Source of the DNA: an uncultured Gammaproteobacteria bacterium
Lineage (GTDB): Bacteria; Patescibacteriota; Patescibacteriia; Patescibacteriales; UBA12465
Direction of reading: 5' to 3'
DNA length: 64,000 nucleotides
NCBI GenBank assembly: GCA_964473565.1
Contig: CAYYPI010000002.1
Coordinates: 3,095 to 67,094 of the forward strand
Shown here: piece after piece, positions 59,676 to 60,378 of the stretch
Layout of the letters: the number at the start of each line of letters is the position of its first letter
How positions within the stretch are numbered: position 1 is the first letter of the stretch
Position numbers and translations under genes: made by a program
Notes under the pieces: model-generated
Databases searched by the model: none
What the model saw: the letters and a program-made list of their open reading frames with translations, nothing else
What the model was told of the DNA's origin: nothing

Positions 59676-60164
59676 TCACTTTGAATTTTTAATATATTCT
59701 TGAACAGCTTTTATATCAATCCTTTGATGATCACCTGACAACAATTTTTTATAGTTTATGAGATCACTTGGATTAATCACAGTCAACTTAATACCTTCAA
59801 AATATACTTTTTTTAATTTTGAAAAATTGGCAGGACTGTGTATCCATCTTTTAGAAAGATCATCAAATATTTTTTGATTATAAGCACCTCCAATATCTAT
59901 TTCTTGTCCAAGGTAGTTGAGTGTCATTAACTTCAAGTTCCATCTTTCATCTTTATAATTTTCAGGGCCTAAAATTATATAATCTTTTACTTTATCAAAA
60001 ATTTTTTCAAAATCATTTTCAGGAATATCTATGTCTATATCGTTCACCTCTCTCTTTGATCCATAAAGATGAGCTGCAAAACCACCAGAAATACGATATT
60101 GGATGTTATCTTTACTAAGGATATTAATAATCCAGCGAAGAGCTTGTAACTGTTTATTTTTCAT
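59676..60164 (-). CDS. nucleotidyltransferase-fold protein (Lnu/ANT-like minimal NTase)
   Basis: SGGFAAHLYGSKREVNDIDIDIP (G[GS]...DxD). Start placed at MKNKQL (60164) because the track's first 13 codons (to 60203) are built from the duplicated HD-gene tail. Confidence 0.55.
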   Translation of the reverse strand: MKNKQLQALRWIINILSKDNIQYRISGGFAAHLYGSKREVNDIDIDIPENDFEKIFDKVKDYIILGPENYKDERWNLKLMTLNYLGQEIDIGGAYNQKIFDDLSKRWIHSPANFSKLKKVYFEGIKLTVINPSDLINYKKLLSGDHQRIDIKAVQEYIKNSK

Positions 60165-60184
60165 TTTAGTATTTAAGTTGAGCC

Positions 60185-60325
60185 TTACTTTTTTCCATTC
60201 CATTCATCAAAGAATTCTTCAAGAAATAATTCCATAAATTTATGCCTTTTATCAGCCATCTTCTTTGCTGTTTCTGTATTCATATTTTCTTTTAATTTCA
60301 AAAGCTTACTATAAAGAAGATGATT
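60185..60325 (-). pseudogene. 3'-terminal fragment of an HD-hydrolase gene (duplicate of the 61931-62070 region)
   Basis: 60195-60313 matches 61941-62059 with 6 mismatches in 119 nt (hand alignment). It encodes ...[42 protein letters not shown] with no start or N-terminal domain. Confidence 0.7.
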
Positions 60326-60378
60326 TTCTGGAGTGATAACGGAAGAGAAACAAACACAATGACGTCTTGAGTTATAAA

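Follow-up and report, generated by a model that had tools for sequence, protein, structure and literature searches.

A probable 3′ relic of an HD-phosphohydrolase cassette fused between two other cassettes of an integron-type array

An HD-derived segment between two small ORFs

In the window, by which we mean the whole 64-kb stretch of DNA analysed here, all genes in the region described below lie on the minus strand. They include an intact HD-phosphohydrolase cassette ORF (61931–62590; 219–221 aa; PF01966), a MazG-like NTP pyrophosphohydrolase cassette ORF (60379–60693; 104 aa; weak MazG and PRA-PH matches) and a nucleotidyltransferase (NTase) cassette ORF (59676–60164; 162 aa; ANT(2'')/Lnu-like fold; PF10706, E = 1.6e-5). 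For the resident HD protein 4238 homologues were found, and in CPR bacteria and DPANN archaea identity reaches 92%; exact-sequence look-ups of the protein (the 221-aa form and P0001) returned no match. The MazG-like protein has 1180 homologues, a 100%-identical one being named from a Parcubacteria MAG. A scan of the genome contigs with the NTase found one locus only.

Between the MazG-like and NTase ORFs lies a segment that repeats part of the resident HD gene. The preliminary description had reported that 60195–60313 matches 61941–62059 with six mismatches in 119 nt, and our own count (113/119 identical) agrees. A repeat search, combined with our own count, gives a 138-nt direct repeat (60185–60322 against 61931–62068) that is 92% identical (127/138), and the segment shares with the resident copy exact blocks of 25, 24 and 47 nt, far above chance. 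Homology to the HD cassettes of other loci (L003, L005, L006, L007 and L008) is confined to 60165–60315. The HD-derived piece is therefore ∼150 nt long (151 nt) and comprises the last 42 codons, the stop codon and ∼20 nt of 3′UTR of a second HD-phosphohydrolase cassette. Its coding part (60188–60315, minus strand) holds 42 full codons (YSKLL...WNGKK*) plus 2 nt, and its TAA stop codon (60185–60187, minus strand) is at the same position as the resident stop at 61931–61933. Identity is 92–95% to the resident HD 3′ end and 88–91.5% to the HD alleles in L005, L006 and L007. It had been proposed that the fragment keeps about 45 C-terminal codons and lacks a start codon and the HD region; both absences are real, and the number of complete codons is 42. 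The 45-aa translation has no Pfam match and aligns only to approximately residues 175–219 of the HD family; the H...HD...D metal-binding motif that defines PF01966 is absent from it.

The 3′UTR remnant (60165–60184, minus strand) is delimited by homology to L003 and L006, which reaches 60165. It consists of a degenerate right inverted-repeat arm (GGCTC-AACTTAAA, 60172–60184) followed by TACTAAA, and differs from intact cassettes by two small deletions and three C>T/G>A changes. With five events in ∼23 nt it is more diverged than the coding part; this may be because of its proximity to the junction, or because constraint on the repeat arm is relaxed, and we can otherwise not account for it. We conclude that 60165–60315 is most likely what remains of the 3′ end of a second, now dead HD-phosphohydrolase gene cassette (hereafter HD'), and that it should be annotated as an HD pseudogene fragment. 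Further 5′-truncated HD relics were seen in L074, where the relic starts at residue 182, and in L041, where it starts at residue 76.

Cassette boundaries and attC-like sites

The upstream boundary of the resident HD cassette is el3 (62647–62744, minus strand), an intact imperfect palindrome with boxes R'' AGCTAAC, L'' GCGTATATCTG, L' CAGATATACGC and R' GTTATAC. The site that adjoins the HD leader, el2 (61691–61915 with the leader, minus strand), is broken: the leader (61871–61915), R'' GTATAAC (61864–61870) and a left half up to CCCAAATTT are followed by AT-rich filler, and then by a remnant hairpin and R' GTTATAT. The upstream boundary of the MazG-like cassette, el1 (60746–60893 with its leader, minus strand), has R'' GTATAAC (60832–60838) and R' GTTGTGC (60746–60752); its L'' and L' are not complementary, and to judge from these boxes it is a hybrid site that probably cannot fold. 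DNA folding energies of el1 and el2 were no better than those of shuffles, consistent with hybrid or broken sites, and an Rfam scan of the window returned only four tRNAs, with no family match for the GC-rich elements. BLAST with an attC library, used instead of a palindrome scanner that was either too strict or too noisy, detected attC-like DNA in the 64-kb window only at el1, el2 and el3. These three sites and two just outside the window (L001a and L001b) all lie between ORFs, in gene orientation, with one site per cassette; no attC was found between the 92-aa and 95-aa ORFs.

We tested the stem structure on eight hand-picked sites (el3 and others from L001, L004, L006, L007 and L078), reduced to arm-only constructs by removing loops and spacers before alignment, whole-site MAFFT alignment having failed to align the arms. 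In these constructs 90.8% of stem cells were paired, as against 28–39% in slid registers, and 12 of 19 pairs carried compensatory changes. The sites conform to R'' nnnnAAC and R' GTTnnnn, with AAC and GTT invariant or nearly so, and boxes such as GTATAAC/GTTATAC are one position off the strict RYYYAAC/GTTRRRY consensus. The internal loop that separates the R and L stems is asymmetric, with 1 nt (A) on the R''–L'' side and 3–5 nt (GAT, GAAC, AAAC or ATAC) on the L'–R' side. As expected of a G|TT crossover, the first 6 nt of a cassette are the perfect complement of its own R'' for the HD cassette (TTATAC/GTATAA), for the R-M block (TTAGCT/AGCTAA) and for the MazG-like cassette (TTGTGC/GCACAA, with R'' taken from L078 and L082). 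In four other cassettes 4–5 of the 6 positions match. In eight different contexts the conserved part of the HD cassette starts at R' or just after it. The plus strand was considered as the attC top strand and rejected: the orientation of the genes, the rule of the G|TT crossover and the attI-like junctions beside recombinase genes in L003 and L005 all identify the minus strand as the top strand.

On the strength of these structural tests, made on hand-picked sites, we regard the array as 'integron-type'. No tyrosine recombinase was found by tblastn (E < 0.01) in the window or in the 6.7 kb beyond it in L001 (71 kb in total), and the array is therefore CALIN-like rather than a complete integron. 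A CALIN is a cluster of attC sites lacking an integron integrase, and integrase-less arrays are common (Cury et al., 2016, PMC4889954; PMC9668308). As in CALINs and in archaeal and CPR arrays (Ghaly et al., 2022, PMC9668308), co-oriented small ORFs lie between palindromes whose structure is conserved and whose sequence is variable, an integrase is absent within 10 kb, and cassettes are common to distant taxa, the HD protein being 92% identical in the archaeal-looking contig L003. In contrast to those arrays, only three sites here (el3, L001a and L001b) are still good palindromes, and the sites have two conserved elements, a GC-rich leader of ∼45 nt on the 5′ side of R'' and CACCCAAATT within the loop. 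Each cassette also has its own inverted repeat of 11–73 nt bracketing the ORF. A limited check of the literature found no description of such leaders, loops or bracketing repeats for attC sites.

Junctions of the fused block

On its upstream side the HD-derived piece meets the MazG-like leader at 60315/60316 (junction 1), with an uncertainty of placement within 60316–60323; the leader ends in ...CAGAAAATCATCTTC, a version of ...ATCACCCTC that has undergone two C>T changes, and the first HD sequence is TTTATAGTAAGC. The downstream flanks of the MazG-like cassettes in L078 and L082 (positions 1–66) align at 80–82% identity to window positions 60381–60316, that is, to the stop codon and the 63-nt 3′ leader of these cassettes. 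In L078 and L082 the leader is followed by R'' GCACAAC and a full attC, whereas in the window it is followed by HD sequence; junction 1 is thus where the MazG-like R'' starts in intact cassettes. The MazG-like 3′UTR and attC leader (60316–60378, minus strand), including the right inverted-repeat arm TGACTAATTTATAA (60365–60378, minus strand), are conserved in L078–L082, and the attC that should follow is deleted. A candidate 'mini attC' at 60326–60368 (minus-strand TTATAAC...GTTATCA) was rejected, because these 63 nt are the conserved MazG-like 3′ leader and the real R'' comes after it in L078 and L082. The preliminary description had placed this end of the similarity near 60320. Secure HD homology does extend to 60315; the stretch 60316–60322 holds two mismatches (60316 and 60318) and, on alignment, is better accounted for by the last part of the 3′ leader that belongs to the MazG-like cassette itself. 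The exact coincidence of junction 1 with the R'' edge might suggest a break that was guided by structure or by a protein and was not random.

At the other end, HD 3′UTR homology gives way to NTase-cassette homology (L004) at 60165/60166 (junction 2), 0–2 nt before the NTase ATG; placement is uncertain within ∼60165–60175. In intact NTase cassettes the ATG equivalent to that at 60164 is preceded by an attC R' and 30–40 nt of 5′UTR. In the window, homology to the intact comparators L004 (75% identity) and L083 (74%) begins at 60166; the leader and attC of the HD cassette are missing, as are the left repeat arm and 5′UTR of the NTase cassette. A possible 4-nt direct repeat, TAAA, is present in both parents at this junction (HD CGCTAAAG; NTase UTR GTTTAAAATG).

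The similarity had been said to run through the stop codon into the TTTAAGTT motif and to stop abruptly there. The first part is borne out: TTTAAGTT lies at 60172–60179, downstream of the stop codon. The abrupt stop is not, since HD similarity to L003 and L006 continues ∼7 nt beyond the motif, to 60165–60167. A cassette-specific inverted repeat (62631–62642/61916–61927) brackets the ORF of the resident HD cassette, and one of its arms is TTTAAGTT(TGGG). The right arm is CCCAAACTTAAA (61916–61927, minus strand), which is the TTTAAGTT motif, and the left arm is TTTAAGTTTGGG (62631–62642, minus strand), 4 nt after the attC R'. This repeat is conserved in HD cassettes of other metagenomes, and other cassettes bear entirely different arms. 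The count of the 8-mer in the window (19, with 16.6 expected) shows no enrichment. The motif is internal to the cassette; the attC R'' follows it at ∼50 nt, and the real crossover, the G|TT of R', at > 100 nt. From its placement within the cassette, TTTAAGTT is evidently not the recombination point.

The NTase start at 60203 had been suspected to be an artefact of the fragment, with the genuine start at 60164, and homologues confirm this. Nearly all the NTase homologues listed are 154–182 aa long, 162 aa being commonest, and six that were retrieved begin M[EGD][NPD]K.LKAL.W, aligning to the ATG at 60164. We therefore take 60164 as the true start. The 13-codon N-terminal extension MEWKKVRLNLNTK (60165–60203, minus strand) is the relic read out of the HD frame and is spurious; the 175-aa form that carries it is unique to this genome, and the public record should start 13 codons later. 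Downstream of the NTase ORF, 59616–59675 (minus strand) is a point-mutated fossil of its right repeat arm, leader and attC left half, in which R'' ATACAAC has become ATACAAT. A stop-codon-anchored alignment of this fossil with L004 scored 11, against −12 ± 4 for shuffles (0/2000 reached it); an unanchored local alignment of the 3′ flank with L004 was not significant (50/500 shuffles scored as high).

Origin of the relic

MazG-like, HD' and NTase cassette sequences abut without an attC at 60315/60316 and at ∼60165, and the three cassettes are fused with both attC sites absent. The preliminary description had called the fragment a scar of cassette rearrangement, and a non-functional HD 3′ fragment directly before the NTase ORF in a cassette array is just that. 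One junction lies inside the HD ORF, neither has an R' (GTT) site and both attC sites are deleted, a pattern better matched by illegitimate and possibly hairpin-stimulated deletions than by the action of an integrase. We think it likely that the relic arose by two ordinary attC-spanning deletions in an integron-type array. An HD' cassette would formerly have stood between the MazG-like and NTase cassettes of a Parcubacteria (CPR) chromosomal array, and each of two illegitimate deletions would have crossed one attC site. One would have run from the first base of the MazG-like attC (R'') to approximately HD' codon 177, and the other from ∼20 nt past the HD' stop, where the GC-rich attC leader starts, to the base before the NTase ATG. 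Replication slippage or break repair, stimulated by hairpin-forming attC sites and using 0–4 nt of microhomology, could have produced both. The predicted ancestral junctions are the MazG-like leader CACCCTC followed by GCACAAC... attC ... TTATACGACATTTAAGTTTGGG, and the HD leader ... attC ... GCAAAATCCTTT followed by the NTase cassette. Among ∼80 related loci we found neither MazG-like followed by HD nor HD followed by NTase, and the ancestral order, the two events and their mechanism are therefore a reconstruction. In L011 a distant NTase (46% identity) lies upstream of HD, not downstream.

A single repair event that captured templated 'filler' DNA would be expected to give the same product, and would be more economical than two deletions. 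The 3′ end of the resident HD gene could in this way have been duplicated recently within the genome, by slippage, by a template switch or as filler DNA synthesised while a break at the MazG-like attC was being repaired, and then have decayed neutrally; the template is on the same strand only 1.7 kb away, and relic and resident share one state (G at 60304/AAGC) against most other alleles. The pattern of substitution makes such an origin improbable. Relic and resident differ by five synonymous and three non-synonymous changes (pS 0.27, pN 0.028), a pN/pS of 0.10 (binomial p 0.003, in a test that rests on only eight differences) that is unlike neutral decay of the present resident copy. All three replacements (N>D, E>K and Q>E) are natural variants that occur in intact HD family members, the relic has the state of other alleles at 5 of the 11 sites at which it differs from the resident, and it is slightly closer to L005 (91.5%) than to the resident copy (89.5%). 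Since the differences are mostly synonymous, we infer that the relic descends from a separate functional allele and not from a recent local copy. Read in this way, the comparison shows an allele that would have been acquired separately, or maintained for a long time, before it was truncated, and the genome would once have held two different alleles of a cassette common to CPR bacteria and DPANN archaea. Retention of the relic for a function, as NTase 5′UTR or translation-initiation region, as a small regulatory RNA or as a 32-aa peptide, is scarcely plausible. Nothing disrupts the NTase ORF as far as the junction itself, and a 2-nt deletion in the relic 3′UTR opens a frame into it; however, on the minus strand of 60700–60165 there is no promoter-like site, overall counts being those expected of shuffled sequence, GC>AT changes and indels have eroded the repeat arm, the arrangement is absent from all other loci compared and NTase homologues lack such an extension.

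Integron integrases use secondary sites at low frequency. Integration at such sites is mentioned in PMC4889954, and a site-specific or motif-guided event at TTTAAGTT or at a secondary site, as the preliminary description favoured, could have joined the HD 3′ end to the NTase gene. The HD repeat arm ends no more than ∼7 nt from the downstream break, and the upstream break is at the edge of the expected MazG-like R''. We nevertheless consider this explanation very unlikely, because TTTAAGTT is HD-cassette-specific and internal, other cassettes' arms being entirely different, is not enriched, and is run through by HD homology. Neither junction has a GTT/R' core, and the point at which cassettes canonically cross over, G|TT of R' or A|C of the bottom strand, is at least 6–7 nt from junction 1 and > 100 nt from junction 2; one endpoint is mid-ORF in sequence that is not site-like; no recombinase gene was found in 71 kb; and relic endpoints already differ between loci (residue 182 in L074, residue 76 in L041). 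The chance that the arrangement was instead created by the assembly, with the shared 47-nt block giving rise to a repeat-induced chimera or collapse, is smaller still. In an independent assembly (Logan contigs of run SRR11308339), L002 equals 61869–60284 and L077 equals 60296–56676, with no mismatches in either; together they cover both junctions, and both end inside the 47-nt exact block, as expected of a de Bruijn assembler. The graph is ambiguous there, the alternative path being a full HD gene joined to the NTase plus a circular or tandem remainder, and linkage across the block rests on the MAG assembly. Yet junctions 1 and 2 lie outside the shared block, so that a chimera could not create them, and each is continuous with a homologue of the expected cassette flank. 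The relic also has 11 private differences on both sides of the block, one short read easily spans 47 nt, and the NCBI MAG contig agrees with the window over > 20 kb.

Origin by deletion makes the relic an ordinary fused-cassette relic that leaves the current understanding of integrons unchanged. Fused cassettes arising by attC loss have been described (PMC4670013): there, as here, neighbouring ORFs are joined, cannot be excised separately and are operon-like. The present block differs in that three units are involved, the middle one 5′-truncated to a 42-codon pseudogene, in that both attC sites are wholly gone, along with flanking UTR sequence, and in that it lies on an uncultured Parcubacteria chromosome with no integrase in view, known from sequence, and not in a class 1 mobile integron. 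Like prokaryotic deletion pseudogenes in general, the relic is a 5′-truncated, promoterless fragment that keeps its stop codon and has 0–4 nt of microhomology at its junctions, whereas its divergence from the paralogue is mostly synonymous. With no attC within it, an integron integrase can no longer excise the parts of the block separately, and the MazG-like/HD'/NTase block is presumably transcribed as one unit. Together with the hybrid el1, the broken el2, the point-mutated NTase attC and the lack of an attC between the 92-aa and 95-aa ORFs, the relic belongs to a set of decay scars at the distal end of this array without an integrase. It illustrates the way in which the cassette arrays of tiny CPR genomes come to be fixed: attC sites disappear both through deletion and through GC>AT drift, and mobile cassettes are thereby turned into ordinary operon-like blocks.

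More tentatively, and with some doubt on our part, the array might represent a distinct CPR/DPANN integron variant, with ORF-bracketing repeats, a GC-rich leader hairpin 5′ of R'' and an XerA-like platform recombinase without the IntI insertion, in which the endpoints of deletions are structure-guided. In a circularised cassette the bracketing repeat would extend the attC stem by 11–73 bp, and the endpoints seen here, at the R'' edge and at the boundary between repeat arm and leader, would reflect breakage or slippage at the base of the extended hairpin; if so, such arrays would have a systematic route to fossilisation. The cassette-specific repeats, leader hairpin and XerA-like neighbours may in any case merit a separate study of array architecture. 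The HD cassette adjoins a divergent tyrosine recombinase in L003 and L005. That in L003 scores as an archaeal XerA (NF040815; 240 bits against a 220-bit cutoff); with TIGR02249, the model for integron integrases, it stays below the cutoff, and it matches IntI4 (PDB 2a3v) only in two separate parts.

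The HD relic and its probable origin

A repeat search of the window returned one outstanding direct repeat, in which 60185–60322 matches 61931–62068 over 138 nt at 92% identity. By separate count, 127 of the 138 positions across the full repeat are identical, with 11 mismatches and exact blocks of 25, 24 and 47 nt; over the shorter span reported in the preliminary description the count was 113/119, which bears out the six mismatches claimed there. The right-hand copy is the 3' end of an intact HD-domain gene (PF01966) of 219–221 aa, the resident HD gene (61931–62590, minus strand). 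The left-hand copy, translated in the frame of the resident gene, gives a 42-letter C-terminal peptide with the stop at the same position, and this translation has neither a Pfam match nor an HD motif. It belongs to the relic (60165–60315, minus strand), which lies between a MazG-like cassette ORF upstream (60379–60693, minus strand) and a nucleotidyltransferase (NTase) ORF downstream (59676–60164, minus strand). A multiple alignment showed that the 3'UTR of the relic is more damaged than its coding part, with two small deletions and three GC>AT transitions in ∼23 nt, repeat arm included.

Over the 42 shared codons, relic and resident gene differ by five synonymous and three non-synonymous changes (pS 0.27, pN 0.028, pN/pS 0.10), and the synonymous excess has a binomial p of 0.003 in this small sample of eight differences. 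The three replacements (N>D, E>K, Q>E) each involve states found in intact family members, and at ∼5 of the 11 differing nucleotides the relic state is common to other alleles. These features together indicate that most of the divergence arose while both copies were functional. The relic is also marginally closer to the cassette of metagenomic locus L005 (91.5%) than to the resident copy (89.5%). The relic therefore probably descends from a second, distinct HD cassette, and recent copying of the resident cassette is unlikely.

The HD protein has 4238 homologues, with identities of up to 82–92% in SR1, Gracilibacteria, other CPR bacteria and Nanoarchaeota; 71 metagenomic loci were fetched for comparison. 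Some homologues (the HD genes of L010, L012, L013, L015 and L016) contain in-frame TGA codons, which would fit hosts with genetic code 25 (SR1/Gracilibacteria), so that one cassette family would be shared by organisms whose genetic codes differ. Two unrelated contigs from metagenomes (L003 8950–10060; L005 1–520) have the HD cassette in first position, next to a tyrosine recombinase gene that is transcribed divergently; in L005 only the N-terminus of the recombinase is present. The 282 aa recombinase of L003, a locus that also carries archaeal ribosomal protein L35Ae, types as archaeal XerA rather than canonical IntI (NF040815, 240 bits; best PDB matches 4a8e and 5hxy), and no contiguous match to IntI was found for it. 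The junction sites beside these recombinases resemble dif (L003, TATAA-CACGGA-TTATA; L005, TTTAA-CGGCGA-TTATA).

Architecture of the cassettes

GC-rich, attC-like elements lie between small minus-strand ORFs at ∼60746–60893 (el1), ∼61691–61915 (el2) and 62647–62744 (el3), all on the minus strand, and two further GC-rich elements (L001a and L001b) are found just past the window end, in locus L001. Read in gene orientation, each element opens in most cases with a ∼45 nt GC-rich leader and is made up of an R'' box (e.g. GTATAAC, AGCTAAC, GCCTAAC) and an L'' arm, then a variable loop, often with CACCCAAATT in it, followed by an L' arm, a 3–5 nt spacer and an R' box (e.g. GTTATAC, GTTGTGC, GTTAGCT). 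When eight hand-picked sites were aligned as arm-only constructs, 90.8% of cells paired in the R and L stems, against 28–39% with partners slid, and 12 of the 19 stem pairs carried compensatory changes. The first six bases of a cassette are complementary to its own R'' (HD, TTATAC/GTATAA; MazG-like, TTGTGC/GCACAA; restriction-modification block, TTAGCT/AGCTAA), which is the classic signature of crossover between the G and TT of R'. This complementarity and the stem pairing argue that the cassettes are of the integron type.

The leader directly 5' of R'' is kept in many unrelated cassettes (window 61871–61915, 60839–60893 and 60316–60364; L001 700–764 and 1958–2006; L007 2270–2315; L008 410–460), as type A (CTCAAGGGGACGCTGCGCTTTCG...CACCCTC) or type B (...CTCCGCT.TCGCTCCGACC...GGGGC), and it appears able to form a hairpin of its own (GAGGG...CCCTC). 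Both this leader and the conserved CACCCAAATT loop are unusual, as attC sites normally conserve R boxes only. Different attC cores (L''...L') follow one ORF with its repeat arms and leader in different genomes (L083 7800–8000 vs. L004 690–830; the HD cassettes in L001, L003, L005, L006 and L008), and different ORFs of one array share nearly the same leader and core. The cores therefore appear to be homogenized per genome or swapped at R'', and not to travel strictly with their ORF.

All eight cassette ORFs examined are bracketed by an inverted repeat of their own (11–73 nt), different in sequence between cassettes and always complementary, with one arm ∼4 nt past the upstream R' and the other just ahead of the leader or R'' of the cassette's own attC. 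The repeats are 14 nt in the MazG-like cassette (60728–60741/60365–60378; TTATAAATTAGTCA/TGACTAATTTATAA), 22 nt around a 95 aa ORF (61196–61217/60893–60914), 19 nt around a 92 aa ORF (61601–61619/61296–61314), 18 nt in a 314 aa cassette of L001 (L001 893–910/1940–1957; TTCTCTTTTGTGAAAAAA/TTTTTTCACAAAAGAGAA) and ∼73 nt around the restriction-modification and AAA block (L001 2168–2240/7887–7956). In L004 they are 11 nt in the NTase cassette (GCAAAATCCTT/AAGGATTTTGC) and 12 nt in a second cassette (TTACTTTTTTAC/GTAAAAAAGTAA), bracketing arms there lying at ∼822–832/678–689. In a circularized cassette such arms would flank attC, lengthening its stem beyond the R boxes. A limited literature check found no published description of cassette-specific repeats bracketing ORFs.

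For the HD cassette, limits were taken from loci with cassette context (L001, L003, L005, L007, L008, L014 and L016). Conservation begins right after the upstream R', at (TT)ATAC GACA TTTAAGTTTGGGCC..., and ends past the stop codon with ...GGCCCAAACTTAAA CGCT.. GGGGACGCTGCGC...CACCCTC GTATAAC (R''). Because of these limits, TTTAAGTTTGGG(CC) and its complement (12–14 nt; 62631–62642/61916–61927) are the two arms of an inverted repeat around the HD ORF, inside the cassette. The three occurrences of the 'TTTAAGTT motif' noted previously are the right arm of the relic (60172) and the right (61916) and left (62635, on the minus strand) arms of the resident cassette; its 8-mer is not enriched in the window, and the arms of other cassettes are entirely different.

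The two junctions of the relic

Upstream, the 3' flank of MazG-like cassettes (L078–L082, 84–88% protein identity) reads, past the stop, TAATTTATAACTCAAGGGGTCGTTGCACTTGATTTTCTTCCGTTA..ACTACA.AAAATCACCCTC and then GCACAAC (R''). Positions 1–66 of this flank align with 60381–60316 at 80–82%, ending on the last base of CACCCTC, where the window reads TCTTC (two C>T changes), and from 60315 downward the sequence is that of HD, TTTATAGTAAGC. Because CATC is common to the HD gene, the break can be placed anywhere in 60316–60323, 0–7 nt ahead of the expected R'' start. A candidate miniature attC here (TTATAAC...GTTATCA) was rejected, as its bases belong to the conserved MazG-like leader.

The downstream junction was mapped by BLASTN of 60101–60420 against all loci and by multiple alignment. 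HD-cassette homology spans 60322 or 60315 down to 60172 and reaches 60165 in L003 and L006; the break thus does not fall exactly at the TTTAAGTT motif, as had been proposed. Homology to the intact NTase cassette of L004 (R' GTTGTGC + AAAATCCTTTTATCTACTAATTCATGTTACAA + ATG GAA AAT AAA; in L083, ...GCAAAATCCTTTATCTACTAATTCACGTTTAAA + ATG) begins at 60166. At this junction the window lacks the remainder of the HD leader, the entire HD attC, and the NTase cassette's left repeat arm with its 5'UTR. Both parents carry TAAA at the breakpoint (HD, CGCTAAAG; NTase UTR, TTTAAAATG), a possible 4 nt microhomology.

The NTase start had been suggested to lie at 60164, and our comparisons agree. Nearly all homologues listed are 154–182 aa long, most often 162, and all six retrieved begin M[EGD][NPD]K.LKAL.W. 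Only this genome has the 175 aa form extended by MEWKKVRLNLNTK, in which the first 13 codons derive from the relic and are read in a frame other than that of HD; this frame is open only because of a 2 nt deletion in the relic 3'UTR. The true start is 60164.

From these alignments we recognize three parental sequences, the positions of both junctions and the loss of both attCs. The ancestral order would have been MazG-like/HD/NTase, with two illegitimate deletions each taking one hairpin-forming attC and adjacent sequence to leave a fused, immobile block. Each left endpoint borders a structured element (the R'' edge in one case, the start of a leader in the other), positions that would fit palindrome-stimulated slippage or break repair, although a single repair event with templated filler DNA may have acted instead of two deletions. 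The site-specific or motif-guided recombination envisaged in the preliminary description is not supported, as the motif is internal to the HD cassette, and canonical integrase action is unlikely: both junctions lack an R' core, one endpoint falls within an ORF, at least 6 nt separate the nearer junction from the canonical cleavage point, and there is no nearby recombinase gene.

Two Logan contigs (SRR11308339) match 61869–60284 and 60296–56676 with no mismatches, so each junction is backed by a second assembler, in a run that may be the MAG's own data. Both contigs end inside the 47 nt exact block, and linkage across it rests on the MAG assembly. An assembly chimera is nevertheless unlikely, as both junctions are outside the shared block and private relic variants occur on either side. 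No sigma-70-like promoter was found on the minus strand in 60700–60165, and promoter-like matches over the whole region equalled the shuffled expectation, which makes co-transcription of the fused block with the MazG-like gene plausible. Among described phenomena, the nearest is the 'fused gene cassette' that arises from attC loss (PMC4670013), here within a CALIN-like array (PMC4889954). As an instance of a known phenomenon the relic is not surprising; it helps to correct annotation and illustrates cassette-array decay in a CPR genome.

Other decay scars and the setting of the array

The relic is one among several decay scars of the array. The L'' and L' arms of el1 are not complementary, making it a hybrid site. 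Of el2 just the left half is kept, and beyond it come AT-rich filler and a small remnant hairpin that includes R'. Between the 92 aa and 95 aa ORFs (61205–61318) there is no attC-like sequence, and these ORFs are a second fused-cassette pair; both encode membrane proteins, each with its own bracketing repeat. The 64 nt past the NTase stop, compared with the right repeat arm, leader, R'' and L'' of L004, gave a stop-anchored score of 11 against −12 ± 4 in shuffles (0/2000 reached it), whereas unanchored alignment of this flank was not significant; its R'' has changed from ATACAAC to ATACAAT. Good palindromes are left only in el3 and two sites past the window end. Further 5'-truncated HD relics have different endpoints (L074, from residue 182; L041, from residue 76).

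In the hybrid sites el1 (60746–60838) and L008 456–568, the left half (R''-L''-stem-CACCCAAATT) is not complementary to the right half (L'-R'). The ∼80–85% likeness among the left halves in el1, el2 and the L008 site suggests that attCs recombined homologously at the conserved central segment, which would delete the cassettes in between.

Every relevant gene from 56927 to the window end is on the minus strand. The window (G+C ∼30%) is bacterial, encoding GyrB, DnaB, ClpB and PurL, and the same sequence is present in GCA_046543045.1 (contig JBKHAF010000005.1); proteins identical to its own are named 'Parcubacteria group bacterium' in one source. From the coordinates, the first base of that contig would fall at about window 42927, beside the tRNA genes, so that some 43 kb of the window lie past the contig's end. 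Neither the window nor the 6.7 kb beyond it contains a tyrosine recombinase gene, and the array is therefore like the CALINs of Cury et al. (PMC4889954). Arrays of this kind have recently been extended to archaea, and cassettes common to different domains have been shown (PMC9668308).

After the array, 56927–59435 (minus strand) holds tightly packed genes without attC-like DNA, encoding an 88 aa coiled-coil protein, an HD_3/YfbR-like 5'-deoxynucleotidase, a Nudix protein, a PQ-loop protein, GNAT and MazG; L078 has a similar MazG-like/Nudix series. The genes of this run may be either core genes or fossilized cassettes. Adjoining the run is a plus-strand nucleotide-metabolism cluster (53124–56848; dcd, thyA, folA, two kinases, adk and tmk), and tRNA genes lie at 42715–42908. 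At the other end, 62815–64000 and L001 2168–7956 make up one very large 'cassette' of ∼5.8 kb between two attC sites, with 73 nt inverted termini. It encodes an HTH regulator, a Dcm-type DNA methylase, an HpaII-family restriction enzyme, a Vsr endonuclease and a 924 aa AAA/SMC-like ATPase (AAA_21, AbiEii-like), and looks like a defence island in cassette form.
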